Notes under the pieces: model-generated | The model's input: only the letters and a program-made list of their open reading frames with translations | Databases searched by the model: none | Told to the model about the DNA's origin: nothing | NCBI GenBank assembly: GCA_965223265.1 | Contig: OZ244999.1 | Coordinates: 8,544,001 to 8,608,000, forward strand | Source of the DNA: Planctomycetota bacterium | GTDB taxonomy: Bacteria; Planctomycetota; UBA8108; SXIK01 | Direction of reading: 5' to 3' | Length of the DNA: 64,000 nt | Translations under genes and position numbers: made by a program | Part shown: piece after piece, positions 3,093 to 58,659 of the stretch | Layout of the letters: the number at the start of each line of letters is the position of its first letter | Position numbering within the stretch: the stretch's first letter is position 1

Positions 3093-3140
3093 TCCCCGCG
3101 TCGGCCGACATGTACGGCCGAACGCTCAGGGGGCCGGTGG

Positions 3141-5972
3141 TCAAAACCCAATCAGCAGCCCTGTCATGATGCCGCGTCCTGCACCGGCGCCGCTTCCCGT
3201 CTTGAGCAGCGGGATGTCGCCGCGAACGAACGCTTCGATTTGATCCGTCAGATGAAGTGAAGCGCCCGGGCGAAGGACGAGGTCAAAGCTGGCTTGGTCG
3301 ACGTCGACGGGGGTACGCCCGGACGATCGACGATCTTTGGCTTTCAGGAGACCGCGCGCGCCGAGGAACAGGGAAACGTGACCGTGGCGCTCGGAGTAGG
3401 TGAGGGCGCTTTCCCACAGGTCGCCGGGGCGGCGCCCTTGGTGGCGATCGATCGCTGTCGTGTAGAGGGTTTCGAGGGTCAGCGCTCTATAGGTGTTCCA
3501 CGTCAACTCAAGCGCACCGCCCGCTGTTGGTCGCCACACACCGCTGCCACGCGCGAATGCGAATGGGGCAGCGCTGGCAGCGTTAGCAGTTGGGGCGGTC
3601 GTTGCCAGTCGAGGGATGAGCCGGAGCGCATCGCCCTCCGTTTCCGACGCAGCGAGCAGAAACGGTCGCTGCACGCCGAACTCAAGGTCGCGGACCCCCT
3701 CATCCGAGCCGCGTACTCCTGCGACTTTCCAGTCAGCGCGCCGGTAACCACCCGCGGCGTCGAGTTCGATCTCCCACGGCCCCCGCACGGCGGCGCGCAG
3801 CGTCACATCGCGCAGTCGGCCGCGGGCGCCGTCGCCGCCTCCCAGTCGATCGCGGTACCAAAAGGAAGACTCGAAGCGGACGCGATCTGGCACCGTATCG
3901 AGAATCTGTTGACCGAATCGCCGACTCTGAGGGCCGGTTGGACTTCCGTAAGGCGTCGGTTCAAGGCCGGCGTAACGCGGCGCCGCGCGCTCGCTTCTGT
4001 CGTACGGCCTGGCCATCGTGACGGCGGCCGGCGCGGTCGCCTCGCCCGACCAAAAGTGCTCGAGCATGTCGAGTCCCTGCTCGACTGTTTTGGCGCCGTG
4101 CGCCGGACCGTTGAGGGCGACGAAGCTTGTCGGGTCCAGTTTGCTACGCGCGTGGTTGGCTTGAGTGACCGCGTAGCCGCTGTAGGCGTTCGCGTGTGTG
4201 ACGACGAATGTGCTGGCCGCCGGGCTGCGCTGCTTGAGATCGAGACCCAAACGAACAGCGATTTCGGACGACGTAGCCACGATCGCGGTGTCGCCGATGC
4301 GCAGGGTTTGCAGCGGTGCGTACTTTGGCCAGTCGATCAAAGATCCAACGAGCCAGTCCAGCGGAAAGAGCAGGTCTGGAATCAAGTTGGGGTTGAAAGG
4401 GGGCAACGCGAAGTAGGTCGTCATTGCGCCGAGTTCAACGTCGCTGCGTGTCGCGATCGAGTCGATGTGGCCACGAACCGCTGTGAAGAGCTCAGCCGCT
4501 ACTTCTTCGGCGAGGCCTTCGGATGCCCATTGACCTGGACGGCGTGGCGACACCGCGTTGAGATCTCCGAGGGCACCGGCGAGGAAGAGACCGAAGCCGA
4601 ACGTGTCGTCGAGCTTCGAGGCGAGGTGTCCAGGGTAGTCGGGCGAAACGAATCCGTCGGCGGGCGAGAGAATCGGGTGGGCGGCGAAGTTGACGACGAC
4701 GGCGATGGGATCTCCTGCCGCGTCGACGACTTTCAGAATTCCAACTTCGGGATCGACGGTGGTGCCGTGGCGTCGATTCGCGCTGAGCCCGCCGGCAGCT
4801 GCGCTGCCGGCGCCGATAGCGGCCGGCTCGAGAGCATTGACTGCGTCGACTACCGCGTCGGCAATGCGCGTAACGAGTTGACTTCGGAGTTCCTCTTGGA
4901 ACGGACCGAACATGTAGAATTCGTAGAGTCCGTGATCCACGAAGCCGCCGACGCTCGTGTGCGTGTGGGTGGCGGCCACGAGCAAGTCGTCGAGCTCGAC
5001 GCCACGCTCGCCCAGACGGACCGCGACGAGGCGACGAAGTTCAGCGTCGGTGATGAGCAGATCGGCGCTGACGACTGCAACGCGCAGATCGTCCACTTCG
5101 AGGGCGATGGCGCGGGCGAACACCGGGGTTCGGACACCGGCGGCGACGCCTGGGCTCGGGCCGTAGGTCGCTAGCTGGACTGGACCGGTCCATCCATCGA
5201 GAAGATTTCGCTTTCCAACCCCTGCCCGCAGTGAGCCACGACGGGTGCGGGTGCTCCCCGAGACGAGTGGATACATGGTGAAAACGCGCTCTTCAAGTTC
5301 GCGGATGCGCTCTTCGTCGTCGAGGAGGCCGGGGTTGTCGATGAACGGTCGATAGAGCTCGACCGGAAACAGGTCGATGAATTGAAAGACGTTCGGATAG
5401 ACCGGCGGGATATGAAAGTGGTACGACGTTTCCCGTTTGAGTCGTTCGCGGTCCTTCACCCCCTGAAAGAGCATGCGCCACGCGGCTGACATCATGCCGG
5501 TACGGTCGGCGCCGGCGCGGCAGTGCATGAGGAAGGGACGGCGGGACTCCTGGGCGCGCAGCGTGACGCGAATCATCTCGAGGATTTTGCGCGGCGTCGG
5601 TGGCCTCGCGGCCGACATGCGAACGTGTGTGTAAGTGCCACTACGTGCCTCGATGAACGCCTTTTCATCGGGGTCGGGCTTGCGTTGTAGATCGAGGATT
5701 TCGCCGAGATTGACTCGTTCGCTGAGAAACTCGAGAAGCGCGCGGCTTGGCTCGTGGGAGCGATAGGCGATTCCTGGGGCAAGCTCGCCGAGGTTGTCGA
5801 AAAGAAAGCGCGTCTTCTCGCCGGCGCTCAGGGGTTCAACGTCGCTCGGTACTTCGAGCGGTGGCAAAGGTTCCGGAACTTCGACGAGCAAGCTGCAGCT
5901 GCTCGTGAGGCTCATGAGGCCCGCGACCCAGGCGGCGGCGACCTGCAGGCGTGCACATCGGGATCGACACAT
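3141..5972 (-). CDS. Putative lipoprotein: CX5R (dual-specificity/PTP-like) phosphatase + neutral/alkaline ceramidase-like domain + C-terminal outer-membrane beta-barrel
   Basis: HCRAGADRTG P-loop; ceramidase-like ATHTHT, NFAAHP and GALGDLN; amphipathic strands ending in ...GLLIGF. Start moved to ATG 5972, which precedes a signal-like stretch ending LTSSC. Confidence 0.75.
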   Translation of the reverse strand: MCRSRCARLQVAAAWVAGLMSLTSSCSLLVEVPEPLPPLEVPSDVEPLSAGEKTRFLFDNLGELAPGIAYRSHEPSRALLEFLSERVNLGEILDLQRKPDPDEKAFIEARSGTYTHVRMSAARPPTPRKILEMIRVTLRAQESRRPFLMHCRAGADRTGMMSAAWRMLFQGVKDRERLKRETSYHFHIPPVYPNVFQFIDLFPVELYRPFIDNPGLLDDEERIRELEERVFTMYPLVSGSTRTRRGSLRAGVGKRNLLDGWTGPVQLATYGPSPGVAAGVRTPVFARAIALEVDDLRVAVVSADLLITDAELRRLVAVRLGERGVELDDLLVAATHTHTSVGGFVDHGLYEFYMFGPFQEELRSQLVTRIADAVVDAVNALEPAAIGAGSAAAGGLSANRRHGTTVDPEVGILKVVDAAGDPIAVVVNFAAHPILSPADGFVSPDYPGHLASKLDDTFGFGLFLAGALGDLNAVSPRRPGQWASEGLAEEVAAELFTAVRGHIDSIATRSDVELGAMTTYFALPPFNPNLIPDLLFPLDWLVGSLIDWPKYAPLQTLRIGDTAIVATSSEIAVRLGLDLKQRSPAASTFVVTHANAYSGYAVTQANHARSKLDPTSFVALNGPAHGAKTVEQGLDMLEHFWSGEATAPAAVTMARPYDRSERAAPRYAGLEPTPYGSPTGPQSRRFGQQILDTVPDRVRFESSFWYRDRLGGGDGARGRLRDVTLRAAVRGPWEIELDAAGGYRRADWKVAGVRGSDEGVRDLEFGVQRPFLLAASETEGDALRLIPRLATTAPTANAASAAPFAFARGSGVWRPTAGGALELTWNTYRALTLETLYTTAIDRHQGRRPGDLWESALTYSERHGHVSLFLGARGLLKAKDRRSSGRTPVDVDQASFDLVLRPGASLHLTDQIEAFVRGDIPLLKTGSGAGAGRGIMTGLLIGF

Positions 5973-8423: not shown

Positions 8424-8526
8424 TGAAATACCTCCCGATCAGCCCTTTCTCGCCACGTCGGGATGATGACGGCAAGCAGGCGCCGCCGCCACAGGTCGCG
8501 GCGTGTTTTTTGTGTAAGCTCCCGTC

Positions 8527-8650
8527 GAGGCAGAGGCGGAGACGGATTGCGGTGCATGCCCCACGCCCACTCCCACTCCCACTCCCACGCCCACGCCCAC
8601 GCACTCGCACTCGCACTCGCACTACTCGCACTCGCACTCGCACTCGCGAA
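8527..8650. repeat. Two-arm hexamer repeat tract (GGCAGA/GGCGGA/GACGGA, then CCACGC/CCACTC/GCACTC)
   Basis: Period-6 repeats are directly visible in the intergenic region. Confidence 0.85.
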
Positions 8651-13543: not shown

Positions 13544-13624
13544 GTTGCCTCGGTAAGTCGTAACCATCTGCTGACAGGGAGGTTGAGGAACAACCGCAAC
13601 GGCGCGGCAGAGGCAGGGGAATCA

Positions 13625-21986: not shown

Positions 21987-22030
21987 GTTGCTCGTTGCTT
22001 CGGGCGTTGCCGACGGTGAGTCACGTCGGG

Positions 22031-22100
22031 AGGCAGAGGCGGAAGCAGAGGCAGAGACGGAGTGCTGGTACTCCCGCGCCCACGCCCACGCCCACGCGCA
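22031..22100. repeat. Short two-arm hexamer tract (GGCAGA/GGCGGA, then CCACGC)
   Basis: Shares AGGCAGAGGCGGA with the tract at 8528. Confidence 0.75.
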
Positions 22101-22270
22101 TGGCCTGGGTCGCTTTTCTTTTTCAACAATGGGGTCGTAGTGTGTCAGACCGGACGACACACGACGTTGCCTGCTCCTTTGGACGGTCTTGCTTCGTTGA
22201 CTTGGCTTCGTTCTGTTCGATTCTTGTTCTGATCTCTTTGAATCTTGAGAAGCGGCAGGCGCTCGAGGAT

Positions 22271-22436
22271 CCACGCCCACGCCCACGCCCACGCCCACGC
22301 CCACGCCCACGCCCACGCCCACGCCCACGCCCACGCCCACGCCCACGCCCACGCCCACGCCCACGCCCACGCCCACGCCCACGCCCACGCCCACGCCCAC
22401 GCCCACGCAAACGCAAACGCAAACGCAAACGCAAAC
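22271..22436. repeat. Perfect (CCACGC)23 followed by (AAACGC)4
   Basis: Counted directly: 22271-22408 and 22409-22432. Confidence 0.97.
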
Positions 22437-22660
22437 CCGCGCCGGTCGCGAAACGAGCCCAAAACGACGCCCGGACGTCGACGTCAGTTACGACGGTGCA
22501 TCCAACTCTGAGCTCTGCCGCGCGGCGGTCAAAGAAAATGCCAGATGCCAACCCCGTCTCGGGGGTCGACACCTGGCCGTCTGGGGCAAGACTAAGTGCG
22601 TCCGTCGACGCCCGCCGCGTGGTGCGGGGGCGTCGACATCGGCTTGTGGCTCCTTAACCT

Positions 22661-36391: not shown

Positions 36392-37270
36392 ATGAAAGCG
36401 ATGACGATGTCGATCAGAGCGGCGACGATCTGGCGATTGGGGCTCGGTGCAGCACTGCCGATCCTGTTGTCCACGGGGTGCCAGTGGATTGAGTCTGTCC
36501 CGTCCGCTTCCTTTCCGGAGTTCGACGACCGCATCGAGACCTGGACCGACAAGACGATTCTCGTCGTCACTCCACACCCGGACGACGAAGCTTTTGGCGC
36601 TGCCGGGACGCTGGCGATGCTCGCAGCACGCGGCAACAAGATCCACGTCGTCGTTTGCACCAATGACGACAAAGGCTCGCGCGACCCCGACATGACGTCT
36701 GAGCGCTTGACGATGATTCGGCGGCAGGAGGAGGAACGTGCCTCCGAGATCGTCGGCATTCCCACGGAGAACCTCGTCTGGCTCGGGCACGAGGATGGGA
36801 TGCTTGAGTACGTCGACGCACGAGATCTGACCAAGCAGATCGCCCGCGAGATTCGGCGTGTGCGACCCGACGCGCTCTTCAGCATCGATCCGGGTGAAGA
36901 TTTTCGTCGCTGGCACAAATCGGACCACAACGCCGGCGCTTTCATCACCGTCGATGCAGTGCGCGCTGCACGCTGGCGCCTCTATTTTCCGGAGCTCGAG
37001 CAGGACGAAGGCTTGAAGGCGTACTCCGTCCCCATCTGCTACATGTTCTACTCGACGCAGCCCAACTACAAAGTTGACATCCACGACTATATCGAGCAGC
37101 GACTCGCGGCCATGGCAGCGCATGAATCGCAGTGGGATCCGTACGTCGACAAATACGCCCCGATGACCGAAGAGGTGCGCACCCAGCTGATCGCGCAGCT
37201 ACGCGAAGGTCGTTTGGCGCCGCGCGAGAACGGGCGATTTGTGGAGTATTTCCGCCGCGCTGAGTACTGA
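36392..37270 (+). CDS. PIG-L/LmbE-family deacetylase (lipoprotein)
   Basis: PHPDDE, RRQEE, HKSDH, AHESQ; lipobox LSTGC. Confidence 0.88.
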   Translation: MKAMTMSIRAATIWRLGLGAALPILLSTGCQWIESVPSASFPEFDDRIETWTDKTILVVTPHPDDEAFGAAGTLAMLAARGNKIHVVVCTNDDKGSRDPDMTSERLTMIRRQEEERASEIVGIPTENLVWLGHEDGMLEYVDARDLTKQIAREIRRVRPDALFSIDPGEDFRRWHKSDHNAGAFITVDAVRAARWRLYFPELEQDEGLKAYSVPICYMFYSTQPNYKVDIHDYIEQRLAAMAAHESQWDPYVDKYAPMTEEVRTQLIAQLREGRLAPRENGRFVEYFRRAEY

Positions 37271-37740
37271 GGCGGAGACGGAGACAGAGACACATCCGAC
37301 AGTTGCATAAGTTTTCGCAGGAAGGGCTCAGAAACCCTTTCCCTGAGGTTCGATCGGCAGTTGAAGGACCCGTCGGGATCGCGCACGACGAACGCGCGTT
37401 TACCGGTGCCGTTGTCGGTGTTTGGTTGCTCCTCGACCACCGCTCCGAGTCCCTGGGCGCGCTCCCATGCTGCGTCGAAGTCGTCGATCACGAACCAGAG
37501 CAGTAGGCCTTTGCCGATGTTTCCCTCCTCCGGGTGGGAAAGCGACGGGTGCTCGTGATCTCCATTCGGACCGGATGGGCCCCAACTGTGAAGGCATAGG
37601 AGGATCGTGTCGTCTTCGTCGAGGATCTGGTCGAACACCGTCCCATTCGGGTGGTTGTTGCGCGCTGCGAGCAGTTCGACGTACCACGCCGAGCTTCGGA
37701 TCACGTCCGCCACCGCGATGATCGGCCACGTCCGTTTCAC
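37087..37740 (-). CDS. VOC/glyoxalase-family protein with an aberrant C-terminus (possible pseudogene)
   Basis: VADV.RS.AWY..., LWF.IDDFDAA, F.VRDPDG; the frame then reads through non-homologous DNA into the convergent gene. Confidence 0.65.
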   Translation of the reverse strand: MKRTWPIIAVADVIRSSAWYVELLAARNNHPNGTVFDQILDEDDTILLCLHSWGPSGPNGDHEHPSLSHPEEGNIGKGLLLWFVIDDFDAAWERAQGLGAVVEEQPNTDNGTGKRAFVVRDPDGSFNCRSNLRERVSEPFLRKLMQLSDVSLSPSPPQYSARRKYSTNRPFSRGAKRPSRSCAISWVRTSSVIGAYLSTYGSHCDSCAAMAASRCSI

Positions 37741-38885: not shown

Positions 38886-40295
38886 ATGTTGCAAAGGATT
38901 GGGCGCTGCCGCTTGCTCTCGGTTGCCTTCTCGCTCGTCGTGGTGACTGAGATCGACGCCGATTCTTGGCCAAGCCACCGTCACGACAGTGCACGCAGCG
39001 GCATCAGCTCGGAGCAGCTCAGCTTGCCGCTCGAAGACGCGTGGGTCTTTGCTTCACGCTATCCGCCGCAGCCCGCGTGGAGCGGGCCGGCAAGGCGCGA
39101 CGGTTGGCACAAAGTTGATCACCTCAAAGCGCGGATGATTTTCGATTGGGCGTTTCACGTCGTCATGAGCGATGACGCCGTCTTTTTTGGTTCATCGGCG
39201 GACGATCAGGTCTACGCACTCGACGCCGACGATGGGCGGGTGCGGTGGAGCTTCTTTACCGAGTCTCCGGTGCGGCTGGCCCCGACTGTGGCTTCCGGCC
39301 GCGTCTTCGTTGGTTCGGACGACGGCTTCGTTTACTGCCTTGAAGCAGTCACGGGCGAGCTCGTATGGAAGGTGCGCGGCGCCCCGCAGGCGCAGCGAGT
39401 CTCCGGCAATGGCCGCTTGATGTCGCTATGGCCAGTGCGTTCAGGAGTCGCGATAGTCGACAACACGGCGTATTTTTGCGCCGGTCTTTTCCCATTCGAG
39501 GGCGCGTACCTGTGCGCTGTCAGCGTAGATGATGGCAGCGTGGTTTGGAGGCACAAACTCGATTTCCTCGCACCGCAGGGGTACATCCTGGCTTCGGCCT
39601 CTCGGCTGTACGTGCCCATGGGGCGGGGGCGCCCGGCGATTTTCGACCGCCGTGACGGTCGACACGTTCGGACTCTGGGTGGCTCTGGCGGGACTTTCTG
39701 TCTGCTGACCGACGATCTTCTGATCTACGGCCCAGGAAAAACTGGGCAGCTGGAGGCGTTCAAAACGGAAGTGCCGGATCAGCTGGCGACGTTCCAAGGC
39801 AATCAGATGGTTGTCACCCCCGGGTCTTCGTACCTGCACACTGATACCGAGTTGACGGCTCTCGACCGAAGTCGCTATCGCGAGATCGCCGAAGCGCGGC
39901 TCGTCCTTGTGAACAGGCGCGAGTCAGTGAAGGAACAGCTCAAGAAGACCGCGAATGCCGCCGCCGAAGCCGCCAACAGCGCAGACGAGCTGCGTCAACT
40001 TTTGAGTGAAATCGAAGAGAAAATTGCAGCGAGTGAAATGTCGATGCGCGAGACGATCCTGTGGCGGCGCTCGTTTGCGTTTCCTTACTCACTCGTGCTG
40101 GCGGGAGACCTCCTTCTGGCCGGAGGAAACGACAGGGTCGCGGCTGTCAGTCGCGACAGCGGAGAGACGATGTGGAGCGCAGCGGTGACCGGACGGGCGC
40201 TCGATCTTGCCGTCGCCTCCGGGCGTCTCATCGTCAGCACCGATCGGGGGACGATTCACTGTTTTCGCAGCCGGAGTGCGGAGGGCGGTGACTGA
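38886..40295 (+). CDS. PQQ-like (BamB-type) beta-propeller protein
   Basis: WP..RHD..RSG start; repeated Y.L.A..G...W docking motifs. Confidence 0.85.
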   Translation: MLQRIGRCRLLSVAFSLVVVTEIDADSWPSHRHDSARSGISSEQLSLPLEDAWVFASRYPPQPAWSGPARRDGWHKVDHLKARMIFDWAFHVVMSDDAVFFGSSADDQVYALDADDGRVRWSFFTESPVRLAPTVASGRVFVGSDDGFVYCLEAVTGELVWKVRGAPQAQRVSGNGRLMSLWPVRSGVAIVDNTAYFCAGLFPFEGAYLCAVSVDDGSVVWRHKLDFLAPQGYILASASRLYVPMGRGRPAIFDRRDGRHVRTLGGSGGTFCLLTDDLLIYGPGKTGQLEAFKTEVPDQLATFQGNQMVVTPGSSYLHTDTELTALDRSRYREIAEARLVLVNRRESVKEQLKKTANAAAEAANSADELRQLLSEIEEKIAASEMSMRETILWRRSFAFPYSLVLAGDLLLAGGNDRVAAVSRDSGETMWSAAVTGRALDLAVASGRLIVSTDRGTIHCFRSRSAEGGD

Positions 40296-43200
40296 TGGCG
40301 ATGACGCACGTTGCAGGATCCTTCGCACATCTCTGGCGGTGGCCGGTTTCGATGCGCGCGCTTTTCGTGCTGGTGGCGACTGCCGCTTTCCTGTGGGTCC
40401 CGACACGCTTGGCGTACGGCGATCCCTTAGCGCATTGGATCTTTTCTGCGCAGAGGCTCGAGCGTGCAGCGGCAGCGGACAGCGGTGAGCGCGGAGCAGG
40501 TGGTGGAATTGACGTTGGACTCGACGGTGCGCTCGACGGTGCGCTCGACGGTGCGCTCGACGGTGCGCTCGACGGTGCGCTCGACGGTGCGCTCGACGGT
40601 GCCGCGCGACTGGCAAGCGTCGTCGATGGCCCGGCTCTCACCGTGCGTGGCCGTGTTGCGTTTCGACCAGGGTTCCCCGCCGGTGCGCTGCTGATCGATG
40701 GAGACGCCACGGAGGTCGAGACTGCTTACACTCCTGACGCTGCCTATTTGCCGCGTCGCGCGTTGACCGTGTCGGCGTGGGTCGCCAACGAAAATACGGT
40801 TGAGTGGGGCGGCATTGTCGGGGCGATTCAAGACCAGCGGAACCTGCAGAAGGGATGGCTCCTGGGCTTTCGGCAATCGAGCTTCAGTTTCGGACTGGCA
40901 TCCACTGGCGCCGACGACGGCGACGGTAAGATCACCTTCGTTCGTTCGCCACACAGTCTCGAGTGGGGGCGCTGGTATCACGTTGTCGGTACCTACGACG
41001 GTGTCGAGCAGAGGCTCTATGTGGATGGTGAGCTCGTCGGTAAGTCCGCAGTGCAGCATGGCGACATCCTCTATCCGCAGGCAGCTCGGTTCCTCATTGG
41101 AGCGTTCAACGACGACGATCAGAGCTTTCGCCATCGCAGCTGGGTGCACGAGGTGCGCCTCGAAGACCGCGCTCTCTCGGCGGCGGAGGTGAAGGAGCGC
41201 TTCGCCGCCAAGCGTCACTTCTTTCCAGAGAGCCTGGATTTCTCTGTCACCCCTGTGGTCACGCGTCTGGATCGAGAATCGATCCGAATCGTCTGGTCCA
41301 CTCGCACGGAACAGCCGACGATCGTCGCGTTCGGTGATCGCCTGCCGCTGGTGCATCGACAGGTGCGGAACGAGGCGTCGACGCGGCGGCATCAGGTGGT
41401 TGTGGAAAACCTGCGCCGCGACCGCATGTACTACTATCGCATCTTCGCTGCCAGAGAAGCTCCGCGGGCTGCGGATTCGGGCGCAGACGCCGGTGCGGAA
41501 CGCCCGAAGAATCGCGATCCCTGGCGAGTTTCTCGTCTGTTCGAATTCGACGCGACGTTCGACTACACGTCACAGCCGCTGCACTGGGCCAGCACGGAAC
41601 CTTCCGCTCGCGCCCCTCTTTCTGCCGCCGAGCTGCTCGCCGACGCGGTGGTTCGTCGCGGTGTTCCAGCGCGCGGCTACTGCCTCATCCTTGGCTGCGA
41701 AGACGGTGATCTTGCCGAGGCGATGGCTCGCCGTACGGGGCTCAAGATCGTCTGCCGAGACGAAGATGCCGACAGAGTGGAACGGCTGCGCCGGCGGGTG
41801 AGCGCTGCGGGTGTCTACGGCGTCCGAGTGAGTGCGCACGTGGGGTCACTTGAGAAACTCGACTACGCGGATTTTCTCTTCAACGTGATTCTGTCGGAGC
41901 GCGCACTTGTTCGCGGTGAATTGCCCCCGAGCCCGTCGGAAGCGTGGCGTGTGCTGCAACCGGGGAGCGGTCTCGTTTACTTCCAACTGCCGGTTGTGGC
42001 AGACGCCAACGAGCGGCCCCAGCATCGCGAGCGTTTGGAGCGTTGGTTGGACTCAGCTACAGCGACGAGTCGCGACGCCGGCGACGCCGGCTCTGCGGCG
42101 ATCTGGGCCTCGGCACGCCGCGAGGAGTTGCCCGCCGCGGGCGAGTGGACGCATCAGTACGCAGATGCTGGTCATTCGGCGAACAGTGGCGACGCGATTG
42201 CAGGCGGCGACATGCGGGTTCTGTGGTTCGGAGAACCCGGGCCGCGGCCGATGGTCGATCGGGGGACGCGGTCGCCGGCGCCTCTGGCCGTGGGTGGACG
42301 CCTTTTCATCCAGGGAGATCGAAGGTTGTTCGCTCTTGACGCTTATAACGGAACGATGTTGTGGACGCTCGAGATTCCGGACCTGCGGCGGGCGAACATT
42401 CCGCGAGACGGCAGCAATATGGTGGCGACGCGCGACTCGCTTTACGTCGCCGTGCGGGATCGTTGCTGGCGGCTGGACGCTCGCACGGGAGAGATGCTGA
42501 AGGCGTTCGTGATCCCGTCTGCGTCGCGCCGCGAGGGCGACGCTGGGCGCGAGCCGGAAGATGGCCATGCAGACGCTCGCCGCAGTGAAACTCCACGAGG
42601 TGAGACTTCAACCGACGAGGCGCCGATACCGGAGTGGGGTTACGTCGGCATCGTCGGCGATGTTTTGTACGGCAGTGCGGTGCGCCGCGGCGGTTCTTAC
42701 GTCGGTGCCGACGGCGAGTGGTATGATCGGCCGGGCGAGGAATCGTTCAAGGTCGTCAGCGAACGTCTCTTCGCGCTCGACCGACGCAGCGGCGAGGTTC
42801 AATGGAGCCGCAGCGGTGGACTGGTCGTCAACTCGACGATCGCGATAGGCGACGGCAAAGTCTATCTTGTCGAGTCGCGCAGCCCAGCTGCCCGCAAGCT
42901 CCAGGCTGGTCGCGTCGGTGACGAGCTCAACACGGACCGCTATCTCGTCGCCGTTGACGCCGCCACCGGCGAGGATGCCTGGGAGCAGTACTACGACTTT
43001 AGTGAAGGTCGTTTCGTTTTCTACCTGACGTACTCAGCCGGGACGCTGTTTGCGCTGAGCACCTCGGACAAGTATCACGCCTATGCTTTCGACGCATCGA
43101 AGGGCGACCTCCTGTGGAAGAAGACGTATCCATGGGCGCGCGATCACCACGGGGGTGCCATGCAGCACCCCGTGATCGTCGAAGACACGGTCTACGCCGA

Positions 43201-43498
43201 GCCGGTTGCCCTAGGACTCAGAACCGGCGACGTCCTGCTCGACGATCTACCGCCGAGACGCGGGTGCGGCGCGATCTCGGCGTCGAAGCGAGCGCTGTTT
43301 TTTCGCGACGGCGACCACACGATGCTCGATCTGGAGACAAAGAAGCGGCGCCGTTGGTCGGGAATTCGATCGGGTTGTTGGCTCAGCATGATTTCTGCCG
43401 GGGGTATCCTCCTGGCGCCTGAGACGAGCGCGGGGTGCTTCTGCGCGCATCCGATACAAACTTCCCTTGCGTTCTTCAGTCTGAACCCCACGCCATGA
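40295..43498 (+). CDS. LamG + FN3-like + SAM-methyltransferase-like + PQQ-like propeller multidomain protein
   Basis: WYHVVGTYDG..LYVDG; LILGCEDG; WTHQYAD; ALDAYNG; C-terminal RSGCW...GC.C. Confidence 0.8.
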   Translation: MAMTHVAGSFAHLWRWPVSMRALFVLVATAAFLWVPTRLAYGDPLAHWIFSAQRLERAAAADSGERGAGGGIDVGLDGALDGALDGALDGALDGALDGALDGAARLASVVDGPALTVRGRVAFRPGFPAGALLIDGDATEVETAYTPDAAYLPRRALTVSAWVANENTVEWGGIVGAIQDQRNLQKGWLLGFRQSSFSFGLASTGADDGDGKITFVRSPHSLEWGRWYHVVGTYDGVEQRLYVDGELVGKSAVQHGDILYPQAARFLIGAFNDDDQSFRHRSWVHEVRLEDRALSAAEVKERFAAKRHFFPESLDFSVTPVVTRLDRESIRIVWSTRTEQPTIVAFGDRLPLVHRQVRNEASTRRHQVVVENLRRDRMYYYRIFAAREAPRAADSGADAGAERPKNRDPWRVSRLFEFDATFDYTSQPLHWASTEPSARAPLSAAELLADAVVRRGVPARGYCLILGCEDGDLAEAMARRTGLKIVCRDEDADRVERLRRRVSAAGVYGVRVSAHVGSLEKLDYADFLFNVILSERALVRGELPPSPSEAWRVLQPGSGLVYFQLPVVADANERPQHRERLERWLDSATATSRDAGDAGSAAIWASARREELPAAGEWTHQYADAGHSANSGDAIAGGDMRVLWFGEPGPRPMVDRGTRSPAPLAVGGRLFIQGDRRLFALDAYNGTMLWTLEIPDLRRANIPRDGSNMVATRDSLYVAVRDRCWRLDARTGEMLKAFVIPSASRREGDAGREPEDGHADARRSETPRGETSTDEAPIPEWGYVGIVGDVLYGSAVRRGGSYVGADGEWYDRPGEESFKVVSERLFALDRRSGEVQWSRSGGLVVNSTIAIGDGKVYLVESRSPAARKLQAGRVGDELNTDRYLVAVDAATGEDAWEQYYDFSEGRFVFYLTYSAGTLFALSTSDKYHAYAFDASKGDLLWKKTYPWARDHHGGAMQHPVIVEDTVYAEPVALGLRTGDVLLDDLPPRRGCGAISASKRALFFRDGDHTMLDLETKKRRRWSGIRSGCWLSMISAGGILLAPETSAGCFCAHPIQTSLAFFSLNPTP
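40520..40603 (+). repeat. In-frame 12-bp tandem repeat (CTCGACGGTGCG) x7, encoding LDGA
   Basis: Counted directly. Confidence 0.95.
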
Positions 43499-52056: not shown

Positions 52057-53142
52057 TTACCGCGGGTCGAAATCCAGAACGCCGAAGAGCTCCGTGCGCA
52101 CGGCGGCATCCGCGGGGCGCTGCTCGAGCAGGTCGAGGCTGGCGCGCAGATGACCAGGCTGCTGCTCGTTGCCGGGGACGAAGAGTAGTTTGACCGGGTC
52201 GTAGCGGACTTCTCCGAATGGGCCAAGCGTGTCCCACAGCTGCGCGCCGGAGATGATCGTCTCGTCTACCTTGCGGCCGAAGAAGCCTCGACGCGCCCGC
52301 GGGCGTCTGTGAAGGACGAGATCCGTTTGCGGCAGCATGGTGGCCTGGGTGGAGTTCCAAACGCAGAGTGTTTGAATCTTGCCATCGACGCGTGCTGGTT
52401 GAATCAGCGGCACCTCAACAACTCCTGGCTCATAGAAAGCGAGCACCATCCGCCGGGTGCAACCGAACTTGTAGAGATACTCGCATTTCTCTTTCGGCCA
52501 GATCTGGATCGCACCTTCGTTCGGCAGCGCAGCGTAAAGAACCCGGTGTCTGTCACGCCAACGCTCGAAGGCGTCGTCTCGGTCGACTGGCTGTGGCTCT
52601 TCATCCTCATCGCCCGCTTCGTTGTCGTTATCGTGAAGCATCACGACGTCCAATCCTGCCGCGCTCTTGAGCTCGTCGATGAAGCGCCAGGCCTCGGTAA
52701 GAAAGAACCTCGGACAGAAGATGGGAATGTGGATGGCGACTGGCGGTGCGTCGACGAAGACGTCCTCATCGTCGTCGGATTCGAATAACTCGTCGTCATC
52801 GCGCGCGGCGTGGATCGTGTCGTCGAGAACGTCGACGTGCCGAGGTACAGCCGAATGCCGCAGGTGGTCTTCGATGTCCCCGGGGCCTTGTAAAAGGCCG
52901 GTCGACAGCACGACCGAAAAACGAACACACGTGCCTTCATCGTAGTACACAAAGTGCCCATCGTCCGAGGTTGGGAGCAGATGGGGATAGCCGAGCACTT
53001 TTTCGACGACGAGCTCGGGGTTGACTGTGTGGTCGGAGAGCGGCACCAGGAAAAGATCGAACGTTGGTCTGGCCACAGCGAGGACGTTGCTCTTGCGATG
53101 GAGATGAAGCGGTCTTTCGGCGGAGGAAGGACGATACCACAA
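52057..53142 (-). CDS. Hypothetical protein (acidic)
   Basis: Long ORF with protein-like composition; no motif recognised; start uncertain. Confidence 0.6.
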   Translation of the reverse strand: MWYRPSSAERPLHLHRKSNVLAVARPTFDLFLVPLSDHTVNPELVVEKVLGYPHLLPTSDDGHFVYYDEGTCVRFSVVLSTGLLQGPGDIEDHLRHSAVPRHVDVLDDTIHAARDDDELFESDDDEDVFVDAPPVAIHIPIFCPRFFLTEAWRFIDELKSAAGLDVVMLHDNDNEAGDEDEEPQPVDRDDAFERWRDRHRVLYAALPNEGAIQIWPKEKCEYLYKFGCTRRMVLAFYEPGVVEVPLIQPARVDGKIQTLCVWNSTQATMLPQTDLVLHRRPRARRGFFGRKVDETIISGAQLWDTLGPFGEVRYDPVKLLFVPGNEQQPGHLRASLDLLEQRPADAAVRTELFGVLDFDPR

Positions 53143-53145
53143 ACG

Positions 53146-53292
53146 AGGTAGAAACTGGAGGGGATCGGACTCGGATGCCGGGTAGAGAGGGAGCCAGAGT
53201 CAGAATCACAGACGGATACAGATACAGATGCAACAACAGAGACGGATTCGGATATCGGAAACAGAGCCAGATACAGATTGCGGCAGTCGGAT
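53146..53292. repeat. Degenerate purine-rich hexamer tract (consensus NNCRGA)
   Basis: GCCAGA GTCAGA ... GACGGA TACAGA TACAGA ... GACGGA TTCGGA. Confidence 0.75.
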
Positions 53293-53362
53293 CCCGAGTA
53301 CGGGTGGCCCGTGCAGGCGGCCCACCGAGGCGGGCTAAAGACTGATGAGAAGCGCCGTGACC

Positions 53363-53390
53363 AGCGCCCGCTACGAAAGTAGCGGGCGCT
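53363..53390. terminator. Perfect 12-bp hairpin AGCGCCCGCTAC-GAAA-GTAGCGGGCGCT
   Basis: Lies 12 nt past the four-helix-bundle stop codon. There is no U-tract, so terminator function is uncertain. Confidence 0.45.
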
Positions 53391-53402
53391 TGGGCGTCTC
53401 GC

Positions 53403-53726
53403 TCAGCGCGTGAGTCCGCTGAGAAGGGCTAGGAGTCGATCGAGGGTCTGGAGAGGCACTGAGACGTCTTCGGTCTTGAGATCGCCCCGGGCCACCGAGA
53501 GCTGCAGGGCAGTCTCGACCTCCCGGGCACTGCCGCGCGCAACGCGATAGAGGTGCAGCCGATCCTTTCCAGCGCGCTCGGCACCCTCCGAGAGATTGAG
53601 CGCGACGGAAGAGGCAGCCCGACGAATCTGCCGATGGAGATCGGGATCAAGCCGACGCAGCCGCAGCAATGGAGCCCGCAAGTCGCGAATCAAACCGAGA
53701 CTGACATCGAGAGCGATGAAGCGCAT
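53403..53726 (-). CDS. Four-helix-bundle protein (23S-IVS/Avd-like family)
   Basis: QIRRAASSVALNLSEG...ARGSA.EV..AL signature; GGAGG RBS before ATG 53726. Confidence 0.9.
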   Translation of the reverse strand: MRFIALDVSLGLIRDLRAPLLRLRRLDPDLHRQIRRAASSVALNLSEGAERAGKDRLHLYRVARGSAREVETALQLSVARGDLKTEDVSVPLQTLDRLLALLSGLTR

Positions 53727-53880
53727 GGGAGACCTCCGCAGAACGTAGAGTGAACAGCTCCGCCGCATCCGGGCGGCGGTACTCCACCCCCCAACGCGGA
53801 GCGGAGTGGGTGTCAAGGGCGCGCAGCGCCGAGCGCAGCGAGGGGACTCTTGACCACGGGTAGCCCACACTGATGTTGGT

Positions 53881-54330
53881 TTGACGACCGTAACGGTCTT
53901 CTATCCCTACCACCCCCTTGCGGGACGCTCTCTGCCGGTCGTTCGGCGGACCTCGAGAGAACCGCCCTGCTACTTGGTTCAAATCGAGAAGCGCCAGCTC
54001 TTGGTGCCGTGCTGGATGACCGAGGAGAGCGCTATGTGGGTGGAGCTGTGTAGATCGCCCCACATCGACGTGGAGGAGCTCCTCGTCATTGCGGCGATCG
54101 TAGAGTCTCGACTCCAAGAAGCACCATCGTCCATCCTTGACTCAGAACCAACTCGAACCAAGGAGGAGGACGATGGTGTGGACGCAGCTTACTCTACCGT
54201 TCTTGCCGCCGGAAGATCAAAGCGTGCTCGCAGTGCTGAGCGCGAAGGAGCGGGAGGAAATCGCTCGGGCAGTGGCGATTCTCCTGCAGGCGATCATCGA
54301 GAACCACGGTGTGGAGGGCGAGAACGATGA
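53881..54330 (+). CDS. Recombinase-associated small protein (DUF5372-like), lacking an RBS in the integrated state
   Basis: V.YPYHPL.G...VP.WMT motif, as seen upstream of such recombinases. Confidence 0.55.
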   Translation: MTTVTVFYPYHPLAGRSLPVVRRTSREPPCYLVQIEKRQLLVPCWMTEESAMWVELCRSPHIDVEELLVIAAIVESRLQEAPSSILDSEPTRTKEEDDGVDAAYSTVLAAGRSKRARSAEREGAGGNRSGSGDSPAGDHREPRCGGRER

Positions 54331-54340
54331 GGATCGATAG
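54173..54340 (+). CDS. Small helical accessory protein (55 aa)
   Basis: AGGAGGAGG RBS; overlaps the recombinase start. Confidence 0.6.
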   Translation: MVWTQLTLPFLPPEDQSVLAVLSAKEREEIARAVAILLQAIIENHGVEGENDEDR

Positions 54341-56417
54341 CAATCATCCAGGTGGCGTCACTACCGAGCACCTCAGGCGCGCGGCAGTAGTATACATTCG
54401 TCAATCGTCGCCAACACAGGTGAAGAACAACGAAGAGAGCACGCGCCTGCAACGCGAACTGAGGCACAAGGCGGTCGATCTTGGCTGGCGCGAGCCGATT
54501 CTCATCGAGGACGATCTCGGCGAGTCGGCTTCTGGATTCGTCGATCGCCCCGGCTTCGAGAAACTGAAGAGCTGGGTCATTGCCGGGGAAGTCGGGATTA
54601 TCTTCTGTCTCGAGATTTCCCGACTGTCGAGGAATTCGGTGGACTGGGCGCGACTGATGGAGCTTTGTCAGCACTTCAATACGCTGATCGCGGACACCGA
54701 GCAGGTCTACGATCTGTCGCTCTCTAACGACAGACTGTTGATCGGCATCCGTGGCTCGATCTCAGAAGCCGAGCTTGCGACGATTCGCTTGCGATTGCGC
54801 CTAGGTCAGCAGGCGAAAGCGAAGCGAGGTGAGCTGTGGATTCAGTTACCGATCGGCTACGTCTACGACGACACTGAGATTGTCTTCGATCCCGACGAGA
54901 GAATCCGTACCGCGATCCGCCGTGTCTTTCAGGACTTCCGTGGCTCCAGTAGTGCCCGACAGCTCGCATTGCATTACCGAGACGCGGGGATCGAGTTTCC
55001 GAGTCGGGGCTTGGGCAACAAGACGGTCAGGTGGGCGGTGCCGTCGGCCAAGTCGCTACACAACCTCCTGGTCAATCCGACCTATGCTGGAGCCTACGCT
55101 TGGGGTCGTTCAAGGACGACAAGCAAGATCGCCGATGGGAGGCTGGTCAAACAGCGTGAACGTCGGCAAGATCCTGGTGAAGCTCGGGTGATGATCCGTG
55201 ACCATCACCCAGCCTACATCGATTGGTCAGAGTACGAAGCGAACTTGAAGAAGCTATCGCAGAATCGACCGCGAAGAGGGCTCGACGGCAACCGAGGAGC
55301 CGCGCGGGAAGGCCAGGCTCTCCTGGCGGGGATGTTGCGTTGTGGTCACTGTGGCGATCAGCTGAAGGTCCGGTACCGATACGAGAAGGCCTTCTATTAC
55401 TGCGACGGCACACGAAAGGGGAACTCACGCATTTGTCTCTCTGTTGGGGCATGTCGCGTTGACCCGATCGTCGCGCAGCAGTTGTGTCGAGCGCTTGACT
55501 CCTCGGGGATCGAGGCTGCGACCAGGGCGTTCGAGCAGATCGAGAAGAGCCGAGCCGACGAGTTGAACTACGCGAAGCAGCAGGTCGAGGCTGCGCAGTA
55601 CGCCGCCAGTCATGCATTCGAACAGTTCGACGCGTGCGATCCGAGGAATCGCCTTGTTGCGGACAACCTCGAGAAACGTCTCAACGACAAGCTTCAGCGG
55701 CTTGCCGAGGCAAAGGAGACACTCCACAAGCAGCAGTCGTCGAGATTGACGTTGACTGTCGCAGAGCGAAAACGTCTCGAGACTCTCGCACGGAACTTCC
55801 AGTTGGTCTGGCGATCGACGATTGATGTCAGGCTGAAGAAGACTCTGCTGCGAGCAGCGATTCACGAGATCATGATCAAGGAGAGCGGCGAGCTCGTTGG
55901 ATCCAATCGGCAAAGTCGCCGCCTGGAATTGACGATTCACTGGAAGGGCGGCGTACACTCTACCTCCGAGCTGTTGCGATTCCCCTCTCCGAAGGCATCA
56001 AGGGAAGTTTCGGTGCTCGAGCTGATCAAGCGGCTCAGCGCCGCGGCGCATAGTGACAGCGAGATTGCCTTAGTGCTTAACAGACGAAGGCTCACGACCA
56101 CACGGTGGACCAAAGACAAGGTGACCGAATTTCGCAAACACAACGGTATCAATTCAGCGCAGTCCTCCGATGATGCGTTGTCGATGAACGGCGCCAGCAA
56201 GTACCTAGGAGTTTCCTCGATAGCATTACGTACGCTTGTCGAACGAGGATTGATCAGGAAAAACCAAGTCGCCGAGTTCGCCCCCTGGCGCGTCTCTCGC
56301 CACGAGCTGGACTCCCCAGGAGTCCGGAGCCTCGTGGCGACGCTCAAGGCGACGGGTCGATTCCCGCCTAAGGAGGGCTGCGCGAAGAACCAGATGACGC
56401 TCTTCGACGACCTATGA
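54327..56417 (+). CDS. Large serine recombinase (resolvase + recombinase + Zn ribbon + coiled coil + HTH)
   Basis: VYIRQSS catalytic Ser; EISRLSRN; NPTYAG; CGHCG...YYC. Confidence 0.95.
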   Translation: MRIDSNHPGGVTTEHLRRAAVVYIRQSSPTQVKNNEESTRLQRELRHKAVDLGWREPILIEDDLGESASGFVDRPGFEKLKSWVIAGEVGIIFCLEISRLSRNSVDWARLMELCQHFNTLIADTEQVYDLSLSNDRLLIGIRGSISEAELATIRLRLRLGQQAKAKRGELWIQLPIGYVYDDTEIVFDPDERIRTAIRRVFQDFRGSSSARQLALHYRDAGIEFPSRGLGNKTVRWAVPSAKSLHNLLVNPTYAGAYAWGRSRTTSKIADGRLVKQRERRQDPGEARVMIRDHHPAYIDWSEYEANLKKLSQNRPRRGLDGNRGAAREGQALLAGMLRCGHCGDQLKVRYRYEKAFYYCDGTRKGNSRICLSVGACRVDPIVAQQLCRALDSSGIEAATRAFEQIEKSRADELNYAKQQVEAAQYAASHAFEQFDACDPRNRLVADNLEKRLNDKLQRLAEAKETLHKQQSSRLTLTVAERKRLETLARNFQLVWRSTIDVRLKKTLLRAAIHEIMIKESGELVGSNRQSRRLELTIHWKGGVHSTSELLRFPSPKASREVSVLELIKRLSAAAHSDSEIALVLNRRRLTTTRWTKDKVTEFRKHNGINSAQSSDDALSMNGASKYLGVSSIALRTLVERGLIRKNQVAEFAPWRVSRHELDSPGVRSLVATLKATGRFPPKEGCAKNQMTLFDDL

Positions 56418-56569
56418 AGGTAAATCGACCGGGTTGTATCAAAGATTCGTCAGATTACGTCGGCTTACACCGAAAGGACTTACGACAGCGGAAGGTTGGA
56501 GGTGCATTGTGTGCTCGACTTCACACCCGCGAGCACCGCGTACGCTCGACAAGACCGCCGCCGTACGGT

Positions 56570-57018
56570 GACCCCAACCCACACGGACTCCCACAACTCC
56601 CACACGGACTCCCACACGGACTCCCACACGGACTCCCACACCCACGGGAACGGCCGACGCGCACGCCGACAAGGCCGGACGGCACACGGCGTGTGCCTGC
56701 CACGTTGAAGAGGCGCGCACCCACTCCCACACGGACTCCCACAACTCCCACACGGACTCCCACACGGACTCCCACACCCACGGGAACGGCCGACGCGCAC
56801 GCCGACAAGGCCGGACGGCACACGGCGTGTGCCTGCCACGTTGAAGAGGCGCGCACCCACTCCCACACGGACTCCCACAACTCCCACACGGACTCCCACA
56901 CGGACTCCCACACCCACGGGAACGGCCGACGCGCACGCCGACAAGGCCGGACGGCACACGGCGTGTGCCTGCCACGTTGAAGAGGCGCGCACCCACTCCC
57001 ACACGGACTCCCACACGG
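56570..57018. repeat. Three 136-bp tandem units, each with CACACGGACTCC 12-mers and a GTGG-tagged REP-like palindrome
   Basis: Identical cores start at 56641, 56777 and 56913; GGCACAC-GGC-GTGTGCC stem. Confidence 0.92.
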
Positions 57019-57193
57019 CCTCCCCCTCCCACGCCCACGCCCACTTCCCCTCCCACTCCCCCTCCCACACGGACTCCCCCTCCCACTCCCCCTCCCCCTC
57101 CCACGCCCACGCCCACGCCCACGCAAACGCCCACGCAAACGCCCACGCCCACGCAAACGCAAACGCAAACGCAAACGCAAACGCGAACGCAAC
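57019..57193. repeat. C-rich hexamer tract grading CCCCTC/CCACTC > CCACGC > AAACGC
   Basis: Directly visible; same units as at 22271-22436. Confidence 0.9.
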
Positions 57194-57393
57194 AAGATTT
57201 GCCGACACGTCGAGCCTGCCCGCTTCTGACAGAGACCGAACCAGCGACGGACGCCGGCCCCACGATGGCCCGGGCAGCTGGAAACTCGTCCGCGATCGCC
57301 GCCGCGGATCCGTTACACTACGCAGGCCGCCGGTTCGTTCTGGACTGGTTGGCGCGTCGAGGTGTCATCCAGTGCAAGGCTTGCAGGTGATTC

Positions 57394-58659
57394 ATGGGAC
57401 CGTTGACTGAGTTTGTTCGCAGCCTACCGATTACCGACGTGCACGAGCACCATCTGCCTGAGGTTTTCCTCAACCGCGATGTCGGCCTGCTCGATCTCCT
57501 TCATCAGAGTTATGCCGGCTGGACGCAGGCGCGCCCGTATCCCCTACCGTCAGAGGCACGTGAGGAGGATCCGATGCTTGCCAGTCGCGGCGAGGGTTCA
57601 TGGGAGGAGGTCGCGCGCTTTGTCGAAGGGAGTGGCTCGTCGACGTTTGTGCGTAACCTCGTTTGTGCTTTGATTGAGCTTTACGACCTCGACCCGTCTG
57701 GAATCACGGCCGAGAACTGGCGCGATGTGGATGCCGAGGTGCGGCGTCGTCACCGTGACCCCGATTGGCCTTCGGAGGTCATGCGGCGGGCGCGGACGAC
57801 CCACATCATCACCGACGCCTACTCCAACCCGCTCTTAGACGCACGGCCAGCACTGGGCGCTTCCTATCGCTCTGTCATGCGGATCAACGGTTTTGCCATG
57901 GGCTTTCATCCCGACCGCGCCGACCACAACGGCAACAGCGCATTCAGCTTGGCTGCGCAGCTCGGGCGTCGCCTCGATCACTTCGACGACTTTGTCGATT
58001 TTCTCGATCACGCCGTCGAAACGATGGCAGATCGAGGCCAAGTCGCGATCAAAAACGCGCTGGCATACGACCGTGATCTTTGTTTTGACGCACCGAATGA
58101 AGATCTTGCTCGCAGCGCGTGGGGGCAATTCGATCCACCTCCGGAGGCGCAGAAAGCCTTCGGCGACTTTGTTGTCGACCGATTCTGTCGGCTGGCGGCT
58201 GAGCAGGACATCCCTGTGCAGATGCACCTTGGCTCGGCTCTGATCCGCGGTTCACACCCCCTCAACGTCGCAGATCTGATCGAACGGCATCCCGCGACGC
58301 GTTTTCTTCTCATGCACTTCGCCTACCCGTGGAGCGTCGACTTGCTCGGGCTGGCGTTTGTTTACCGCAATATCTGGCTTGACCTGACATGGTCGTTTCT
58401 CCTAAGCCCGACGCATTTCAAGCGCGCTCTTCACGAAGCCATCGAAGTTTTGCCGAACGAGGCGCGGATGATGCTCGGCGGCGACAACTGGCACGCCGAA
58501 GAGAGCTACGGCACCTTCGAGTTGGCGCGCCGGTTGATCGGCGAGGTTTTGGACGAGAAGGTAGAAGCGGGTTACTTCGCTCAGCGCGACGCAGAGCGGC
58601 TTGCACGGAAGGTCTGCAGCGAGAATGCGAACGAGTTTTTCCAGTTGGATGCTGTGTGA
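57394..58659 (+). CDS. Amidohydrolase-family (TIM-barrel) protein
   Basis: DVHEH, QMHLG, LMHFAYP, GGD. Confidence 0.85.
   Translation: MGPLTEFVRSLPITDVHEHHLPEVFLNRDVGLLDLLHQSYAGWTQARPYPLPSEAREEDPMLASRGEGSWEEVARFVEGSGSSTFVRNLVCALIELYDLDPSGITAENWRDVDAEVRRRHRDPDWPSEVMRRARTTHIITDAYSNPLLDARPALGASYRSVMRINGFAMGFHPDRADHNGNSAFSLAAQLGRRLDHFDDFVDFLDHAVETMADRGQVAIKNALAYDRDLCFDAPNEDLARSAWGQFDPPPEAQKAFGDFVVDRFCRLAAEQDIPVQMHLGSALIRGSHPLNVADLIERHPATRFLLMHFAYPWSVDLLGLAFVYRNIWLDLTWSFLLSPTHFKRALHEAIEVLPNEARMMLGGDNWHAEESYGTFELARRLIGEVLDEKVEAGYFAQRDAERLARKVCSENANEFFQLDAV

Follow-up and report, generated by a model that had tools for sequence, protein, structure and literature searches.

Introduction

The TIGR02436/IVS-protein family is widespread, often multi-copy, structurally solved and related to Avd, and its stand-alone members have no assigned function. 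Genes of this family (S23p ORFs) lie in the intervening sequences (IVS) of the 23S rRNA of Leptospira, Coxiella, Xanthomonas and others. The accessible part of an account of the Coxiella IVS (PMC4990558) describes a selfish element with the family open reading frame (ORF) in the loop of a stem that is cut by RNase III; two to three perfect tandem GACAGAT heptamers, strain-variable in number, and one degenerate unit lie directly 5' of the ORF, and an older idea is cited there in which the ORF serves mobility. Here we describe a 64-kb stretch of a planctomycete chromosome (contig OZ244999.1), referred to throughout as the window, in which a gene of this family, predicted to encode a four-helix bundle, is bracketed by two arrays of short tandem repeats outside any rRNA. 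An initial annotation had proposed an undescribed repeat-associated element at this locus, and had passed over the closest relative of the arrangement, which is the 23S rRNA IVS. We show that the array-ORF-array design recurs in other genomes with a fixed polarity, that the gene is multi-copy in its own genome and that a recombinase element nested in the locus is independent of it. We argue that the locus is a nested composite whose core is probably a copy of a selfish IVS-like cassette, with the arrays as its own cis parts.

Dispersed short tandem repeats have been catalogued in cyanobacteria, xanthomonads and sulfur bacteria, to which a planctomycete is added here; they are quadruplex-forming and have no known origin or role. 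The cyanobacterial heptamer repeats reportedly bear the name STRR and are said to have been described in 1990. In Xanthomonas, Nostoc and Beggiatoaceae, heptamer arrays occur in intergenic DNA by the hundreds per genome, some of them in inverted pairs, and the accessible sections of the two papers concerned make no mention of a link to four-helix-bundle genes (PMC4692102, PMC4679880). According to the available part of a further study, G-patterns are strongly over-represented in the planctomycete Isosphaera and in Anabaena, Nostoc and Microcystis (PMC4060949). Avd, the relative of the IVS proteins, is essential to retrohoming, as stated in the portion of PMC10053308 at hand. In the literature covered, partial texts with supplementary tables excluded, we found no description of tandem arrays around genes of the IVS-protein family.

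The gene and its bracketing arrays

The window belongs to a planctomycete chromosome of 61% GC and contains PSCyt1/PSCyt2/PSD1 and DUF1501 genes. The gene at its centre of interest, at 53403-53726 on the minus strand, encodes a protein of 107 amino acids plus stop (P0001) and is assigned by profile, sequence and structure matches. P0001 matches PF05635 (E 6.7e-14; 52.4 bits, above the cut-off of 33.8) and TIGR02436 (E 2.2e-14; 53.6 bits, above the cut-off of 24), and a sequence search identifies Xcc0516 (2GSC; E 4e-9), a protein reported as a pentamer and cited in the accessible part of PMC4990558. Its AlphaFold model is an up-down helical bundle with a pLDDT of 97.6, for which the best Foldseek matches are 2gsc_E (E 7.5e-5, TM 0.83) and 2rld_E (BT_0352, TM 0.83). 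Avd comes next (4dwl_E; TM 0.83, rmsd 1.8, 7% identity), and among the Avd chains of the diversity-generating retroelement (DGR) ribonucleoprotein the best match is 8ub7_E, with a TM of 0.84 on the query; other DGR entries reach TM 0.78-0.81, and across the Avd matches the rmsd is 1.8-2.4 and the identity 6-8%. P0001 is basic (pI 11.2). An apparent HEPN-like R-x6-H motif was discarded, as both of its residues fall outside the conserved columns of an 80-sequence alignment; PADLOC matched no defence family among six proteins, and a search for longer family proteins gave one read-through protein and nothing else.

The gene carries signals of its own. A GGAGG Shine-Dalgarno sequence lies 8 nt 5' of the ATG, within a 144-nt leader (53727-53870, minus strand) that also holds a GTCAAGGG...CTCTTGAC stem at 53812-53854. 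This stem, which the initial annotation had listed as a hairpin, does appear in the computed fold, yet shuffled versions of the leader as a whole (53727-53875) fold just as well (z +0.5). The 3' spacer (53293-53402, minus strand) fares better: a 12-bp terminator-like hairpin with a GAAA loop (53363-53390) follows directly after the stop codon, and the fold of the 3' region has a z of -3.96, with 0 of 200 shuffles as good. A scan of 52900-57500 returned no promoter-like site, and its lone terminator-like site lies inside the recombinase gene described below.

The whole locus sits between divergent genes at 52057-53142 (minus strand) and 57394-58659 (plus strand), and both of its proposed arms were recovered. 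Downstream of the gene, at 53146-53292, lies a purine-rich arm of period 6 (locus C), with units CAGATA, CGGATA and CAGAGA on the plus strand, and hence pyrimidine-rich on the sense strand of the gene. It is 68% purine. Measured in 48-nt windows, its period-6 self-match peaks at 0.65, compared with ~0.29 (sd ~0.08) for the background and a maximum of 0.56 outside the tract loci of the window. Tandem Repeats Finder (TRF) at a score of at least 40 makes no call for it, from which we take it to be a decayed array. Upstream of the gene, at 56570-57193, lies a C-rich arm (58% C, 12% G) that is G-rich on the sense strand, with (GGGCGT)n on the strand opposite to the C-rich one. TRF resolves it into CCCACACGGACT 12-mers (5.6 copies), a 136-bp unit (3.0 copies) and hexamers (12-22 copies); the three copies of the 136-bp unit, at 56608-57015, are 100% identical and are followed by CCCACG, CCCACT and ACGCAA hexamers. 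The part of the 136-bp unit outside the 12-mers (56640-56722 and two further copies) contains the palindrome GGCACACGGCGTGTGCC. In folding, neither strand does better than shuffles, and no further match was found in the window.

In a protein cluster search, the clusters closest to P0001 all map to one contig of 9,179,496 bp: P0002 at 97% identity (eight member sequences), P0003 at 87% (one), P0004 at 83% (four) and P0005 at 82% (four), together with P0010 at 60%, which is frameshifted mid-gene. At least 18 paralogous protein variants are therefore found in one genome, and with the frameshifted copy they are what a proliferating element would be expected to show. The remaining homologues lie mostly on contigs of 0.5-3 kb.

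Recurrence in other genomes

The association of gene and arms, if judged from the window, would be weak, since strong tracts occur in 3 of ~11 intergenic gaps of at least 100 bp (on a crude gene map) and the gene is present in one of four tract loci. Its weight comes from other genomes. The first is a contig of a metagenome-assembled genome with 74% GC (L001), which encodes a family homologue 57% identical to P0001 in amino acids. Two convergent family genes, at 2074-2394 (plus strand) and 2449-2775 (minus strand), lie there between housekeeping genes for a glycosyltransferase and a thiolase and have a common terminator. Hexamer arrays flank the pair on both sides, at 1744-1984 on the left (CGGCTG-like units) and at 2842-2947 and 2998-3161 on the right (CCGGCA units and a perfect (CCGGAG)17 at 3031-3134). 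The units are unlike those of the window, and on either side the two arrays pair with one another (z -6.0 and -9.5). The two genes have a third-codon-position GC content (GC3) of 0.86, compared with 0.95-0.97 in their neighbors. Palindromes apart, we found no non-repeat sequence common to the tract loci or to these and L001.

Two further observations on this contig deserve mention. Long, near-perfect palindromes at 2008-2068 and 2786-2850 abut the 5' ends of both genes and cover the Shine-Dalgarno sequence of each (z -6.2 and -9.0), an arrangement that may serve translational masking. A period-6/24 signal at 4578-4677, considered as an intergenic tract, turned out to be coding, as it corresponds to the His/Gly-rich C-terminal tail (4560-4680, minus strand) of a YHS/TRASH-domain protein; this tail scores 0.69 for period 6 and is the one stretch elsewhere on the contig that comes near the arrays, several weaker ones scoring 0.56-0.60.

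As a proxy for flanking DNA, we then took the extensions of family proteins, where arrays read through as ORF would appear as dipeptide repeats. Among 265 family proteins there are 83 non-domain segments of at least 14 amino acids, and six of these (in P0274, P0278, P0294, P0303, P0308 and P0329) contain dipeptide repeats. The expectation is 0.26 +/- 0.51, calculated with length-matched pieces of six-frame ORFs that lie outside the tract loci of the window and L001, and none of 300 resamples reaches six. P0239, the top match of the search with representatives, was dropped as a false positive, being an animal-type repeat protein of 6182 amino acids with 20 weak stretches.

The strongest evidence comes from plasmids. 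The second L001 protein found a single plasmid gene, located between cas6 and cas4 in Anabaena sp. 90, which is preceded by ~300 bp of GGTGACA/GGGAACA heptamers reaching up to the ribosome-binding site and followed by (CTGTCAC)4.3. With this Anabaena protein as query, 40 plasmid records were retrieved, and 19 loci were picked for organism diversity before their sequences were viewed; 17 are cyanobacterial and the others are from Gemmatirosa and Azospirillum, together forming 13 clusters at 70% identity or more. Arrays were called with TRF (period 5-24, at least three copies, within 100 nt of a flank), and the controls were the flanks of other ORFs of at least 100 amino acids in the same loci, excluding flanks that face the family gene and without de-replication. 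Arrays, of 7-8 nt period, occupy 31 of the 38 flanks of family genes; among the controls, 20 of 182 flanks have one (odds ratio 36, Fisher p 8e-18). The proportion holds when the discovery locus is removed (29/36) and when one locus is kept per cluster of at least 70% identity (22/26). The enrichment at family genes relative to other genes, proposed as a check on the initial annotation, is therefore clear on plasmids and weak in the window alone, and the gene and its arms do belong together.

The plasmid loci also reveal a constant design, although their array units vary from locus to locus. Both flanks carry arrays in 13 of the 19, as inverted complements in eight, direct copies in three and other combinations in two. 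On the sense strand, upstream units are rich in purines in 13 of 14 cases and downstream units rich in pyrimidines in 14 of 17, a polarity that is the same in the window cassette, which differs in its period of 6 and its much longer arms. The arrays often lie within a few bases of the start and stop codons, and the upstream units are rich in GGAG/AGGAG. At one locus (L005), (AGUAGGG)n and (UCCCUAC)n form a stem around the whole ORF (z -7.5).

Several of the genes on cyanobacterial plasmids lie inside operons whose function is unrelated to them (L002, 5896-6264; L007, 4004-4363; L003, 4001-4357; L005, 4001-4369). The sites are cas6/cas4 of two type I-D CRISPR-cas loci, cas10/cmr3 of a type III-B locus, and the interval between ribonucleotide reductase subunit genes. 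In the accessible part of a CRISPR survey, a '23S rRNA IVP' is listed among novel associations of adaptation modules (PMC10910872).

Arm loci of the window

Outside the gene locus, the window contains three further tract loci, all of which had been noted in the initial annotation and were recovered with nearly the same limits. Locus A (8527-8650), between divergent genes, is a gene-less arm pair in which a 13-nt spacer separates the purine arm GAGGCAGAGGCGGAGACGGA from the CCCACG/CCCACT/CACTCG hexamers that follow it. Locus B (22028-22437), between convergent genes, is a second gene-less pair, with a purine arm, a short C-rich arm, a T-rich spacer of 171 nt and, as its last part, a perfect (CCACGC)23 and then (ACGCAA)5. 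Locus D (37269-37297) is a lone short purine arm that begins in the stop codon of a PIG-L-family gene.

These loci share more than composition. The purine arms of A, B, C and D align and have a common outer end, GAGGYRGA, and those of A and C share the inner end GATTGCGG. The C-rich arms have a common order, with CCCACG-type units followed by ACGCAA, and the C-rich arm beside the gene is in register with that of locus B, at up to 84% over 166 nt. With at most one mismatch, CCCACGCCCACK has 40 matches in the window where 0.85 are expected, all on the plus strand and in three loci only; purine-arm matches at the same stringency are likewise all on the plus strand, the GC skew of which is positive throughout the window. 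The arms are thus a dispersed element of this genome, and the perfect blocks, (CCACGC)23 and the three 136-bp copies, show recent expansion. No remnant of a four-helix-bundle gene was found at the gene-less loci, no target duplication was recognized at the arm ends, and there are no terminal inverted repeats, the two arms being unlike each other.

A few candidate signals were considered and rejected. The motif GAGACGGA occurs in the window as often as expected by chance (5 vs 5.16) and is merely an arm unit; four of its five matches lie in the four purine arms, and its single L001 match lies 7 nt beyond an arm end. A two-mismatch arm match at 13604-13618 is not an arm. Rho utilization or G-quadruplex formation would fit the composition of the window, with its C-rich arm and with loci A and B less structured than shuffles, and fails as a common denominator because the L001 arms are self-complementary and not C-rich.

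Three observations around these loci stand on their own. Just before locus A, the plus strand has a GC-rich hairpin with a T-run after it (8478-8513), in a divergent gap where no plus-strand gene ends. A glyoxalase-like ORF (37087-37740, minus strand) has no stop through purine arm D and for 184 nt into the convergent PIG-L gene. A perfect 12-mer, CTCGACGGTGCG, repeated 6.9 times at 40520-40602, lies within a gene for 1067 amino acids (40295-43498); it is coding and unrelated to the arms.

The recombinase insertion

Between the leader and the C-rich arm lies an IS-like element of ~2.7 kb (~53871-56569, plus strand), which the initial annotation had removed as an insertion before describing the cassette. 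It contains ORF1 (53881-54135), ORF2 (54137-54340, 67 amino acids) and a gene for a large serine recombinase (54327-56417, 696-702 amino acids), all on the plus strand. The recombinase has Resolvase (E 1.9e-19), Recombinase (E 1.8e-13) and Zn-ribbon (E 9.4e-6) domains, and ORF1 weakly resembles DUF5372 at an E of 0.019, which is below the cut-off. A placement of the element ends from a 7-bp CCCACAC on both sides and palindromes at ~53887 and ~56558 was set aside, as it was made by eye on one copy and is not significant.

Several lines of evidence set this element apart from the cassette. The recombinase belongs to a multi-copy family of its own. A cluster at 100% identity, with three variants, lies on the 9.18-Mb contig of the paralogues; homologues number more than 3,500 and typically sit on contigs of 2.3-3.4 kb, and the family occurs in 452 plasmid records at up to 13 places per record, rhizobial plasmids among these. 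No recombinase gene lies within 12 kb of the L001 family genes (eight ORFs), and the plasmid cassettes as a rule have none next to them. The recombinase element is therefore a separate insertion, independent of the cassette, and looks like a member of an IS-like family.

Discussion

The bracketed ORF is a family-wide architecture and a non-ribosomal counterpart of the 23S rRNA IVS. We hold the architecture with good confidence and its mechanism with modest confidence, and put the whole reading, a nested composite around a selfish IVS-like cassette that owns its arrays, at a probability of roughly 55%. On this reading the cassette would be ~0.6 kb long and comprise the family gene, its own ribosome-binding site, a terminator hairpin and bracketing polar arrays, with the 2.7-kb serine-recombinase element presumably a later arrival between the leader and the array upstream of it. 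Inverted arrays could form a long, register-tolerant stem in the transcript, which would surround the ORF and mask the purine-rich repeats that resemble Shine-Dalgarno sequences, and host RNase III could trim the insert from the surrounding transcript, as in rRNA; insertion inside operons would then be tolerated. At the DNA level the arrays change fast, by slippage, expansion and decay, and copies might multiply by recombination between arrays or by an unseen trans-acting enzyme. The selfishness, the RNA trimming, the route of multiplication and any binding of arrays by the basic protein are our inferences. The gene-less arm pairs would most simply be cassettes minus the ORF, or sites not yet filled. 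They keep the same ends, order and strand as the gene-bearing locus, and may be non-autonomous derivatives, as in the autonomous/non-autonomous pair proposed in the initial annotation, or else unoccupied sites or host repeats independent of the cassette; no mobility enzyme was found.

A number of results weigh against this account. Compared with shuffles, cross-arm duplexes in the window give z -1.4 to +1.5, and the folds of loci A and B are poorer (z +1.7 and +5.9). The arms there are not complementary, and so the part of the model concerned with a stem and RNase III does not extend to the window, where pairing would be possible by composition only, between G-rich and C/U-rich RNA. The plasmid loci are of a different subfamily, and P0001 as a query gave no match among plasmids; the loci are also mostly cyanobacterial and partly related to each other (13 clusters among 19 loci), and six of the 19 lack an array on one or both flanks, with none at all at L015. 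The distances from arm to gene are 111 nt and ~170 nt in the window vs 0-94 nt on plasmids, and the period is 6 vs 7-8. The gene is missing from three of the four tract loci of the window, which means that arrays can exist alone. A single cassette copy is visible, with no definable element ends, target duplication or mobility enzyme. Finally, the dipeptide comparison draws its control from two genomes only.

The main rival explanation takes the arrays for host repeats that were already in place, similar to the dispersed repeats of Nostoc, Xanthomonas and Beggiatoaceae and with a structural or regulatory role of their own. Four-helix-bundle cassettes and insertion sequences would insert into or between them, as array sites would be preferred targets or safe havens. 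We regard this as possible, if distinctly the weaker account. The gene-less majority of tract loci in the window speaks for it, as do arm pairs A and B, which keep their ends and block order with no gene remnant, and the presence of a second mobile element, the recombinase, in the same gap. On plasmids, 52 arrays occur away from the gene in 147,790 nt, and the hundreds of heptamer arrays per genome have been described, in the accessible sections, with no link to the family gene (PMC4692102, PMC4679880); the over-representation of G-patterns in Isosphaera points the same way, as far as the available text goes (PMC4060949). However, array polarity follows the orientation of the gene (upstream purine in 13/14, downstream pyrimidine in 14/17), whereas random insertion would be expected in both orientations, unless insertion were directional. 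The frequent placement of arrays within a few bases of start and stop codons, and the retention of the design while the units differ by locus, also fit poorly with host repeats.

A second, improbable alternative makes the family proteins the trans-acting factor behind dispersed short tandem repeats, both the hexamer arm pairs of the window and the heptamer arrays of cyanobacteria and others. They would bind the arrays, as DNA or as RNA, and would seed, extend or copy them, by themselves or together with a polymerase or reverse transcriptase from another locus. If this were true, the gene-less arm pairs would be products of gene-bearing cassettes.

Could the arrays instead be expression signals of a resident, non-mobile gene, with ribosome standby or autoregulation sites upstream and a terminator or stabilizer downstream? 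The GGAG/AGGAG-rich upstream units that run up to the start codon, and the L001 palindromes, with the Shine-Dalgarno sequence inside them (z -6.2 and -9.0), would be natural under such a proposal. We consider it quite unlikely, as it leaves unexplained the paralogues (at least 18, with a frameshifted copy), the insertion between operon genes (cas6/cas4, cas10/cmr3 and ribonucleotide reductase subunits), the atypical GC3 in L001 and the gene-less arm pairs.

Very unlikely, in our estimate, is a retro-mobile cassette, in which the Avd-like protein would partner a reverse transcriptase supplied from another locus, and reiterative, telomerase-like copying at transcript ends would produce the arrays. 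The idea draws on the fold matches to Avd and to the chains of the DGR complex (TM 0.83-0.84) and on the essential part of Avd in retrohoming, given in the accessible text of PMC10053308. A Pfam scan found no reverse transcriptase or nuclease family among the 41 ORFs of the window, in agreement with the initial annotation, and the search for a reverse transcriptase partner that it had suggested found none among the eight L001 ORFs either. Nor does the window contain a repeat resembling the template and variable repeats (TR/VR) of DGRs, its direct repeats of at least 45 nt being the tract families, the coding 12-mer array and a 51-nt intragenic pair. Identity to Avd is just 6-8%, and poly-A-like tails and target duplications are absent. 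Mere coincidence, in which gene and tracts happen to occupy the same long, tolerant intergenic gaps, would make one co-occurrence in a window with tracts in ~3 of 11 large gaps unremarkable and is hardly credible in view of the recurrence in L001, in protein extensions and on plasmid flanks (31/38 vs 20/182, p 8e-18).

If the selfish, IVS-like cassette is the correct reading, its meaning goes beyond this locus. Through the arrays that bracket the gene with fixed polarity, the IVS-protein family is linked to the dispersed short tandem repeats, and two old unknowns would merge into one testable problem. The IVS design would reach ordinary sites on chromosomes and plasmids, among them the interior of CRISPR-cas operons. 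There are practical sides too, as assemblies break at the arrays and spurious ORFs arise from them, and the cassettes mark insertion-tolerant sites.

Among known systems, large-serine-recombinase elements resemble the nested 2.7-kb insertion, in domains and copy number, and not the cassette. Pairs of autonomous transposons and MITEs (miniature transposable elements with inverted repeats) share with the window locus the same ends with and without an internal gene, and gene-less copies that are more numerous; they differ in that the ends here are unlike each other, no target duplication or transposase was found with them and no catalytic role is known for the internal gene. Avd has the same fold as P0001, and both proteins are small and basic, whereas identity is 6-8% and neither a reverse transcriptase nor a template/variable repeat lies near the P0001 gene.

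Of the dispersed short tandem repeats, the cyanobacterial heptamers, the Xanthomonas GGGAATC repeats and the Beggiatoaceae TAACTGA repeats are intergenic, strand-asymmetric, G-rich on one strand and often in inverted pairs, as set out in the accessible parts of PMC4692102 and PMC4679880, and the window, with three to four loci in 64 kb that have common units and a common strand, is similar; the period is 6 here and 7 there. The closest system is the 23S rRNA IVS. The element of the window differs from it, an insert in helix 25 or 45 of a 23S rRNA gene, in lying outside rRNA, among protein-coding genes (at the gathering threshold, Rfam finds no family and no rRNA in the 76,388 bases of the window and L001), in arms that consist of hundreds of bases of non-complementary hexamers, and in being multi-copy per genome and accompanied by gene-less arm pairs. 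The likenesses are threefold: the gene belongs to the same protein family; the ORF lies within pairing flanks, on plasmids though not in the window (eight of 13 two-array loci inverted, and the L005 stem); and, as in the accessible description of the Coxiella element (PMC4990558), short tandem repeats of strain-variable copy number stand directly before the ORF.

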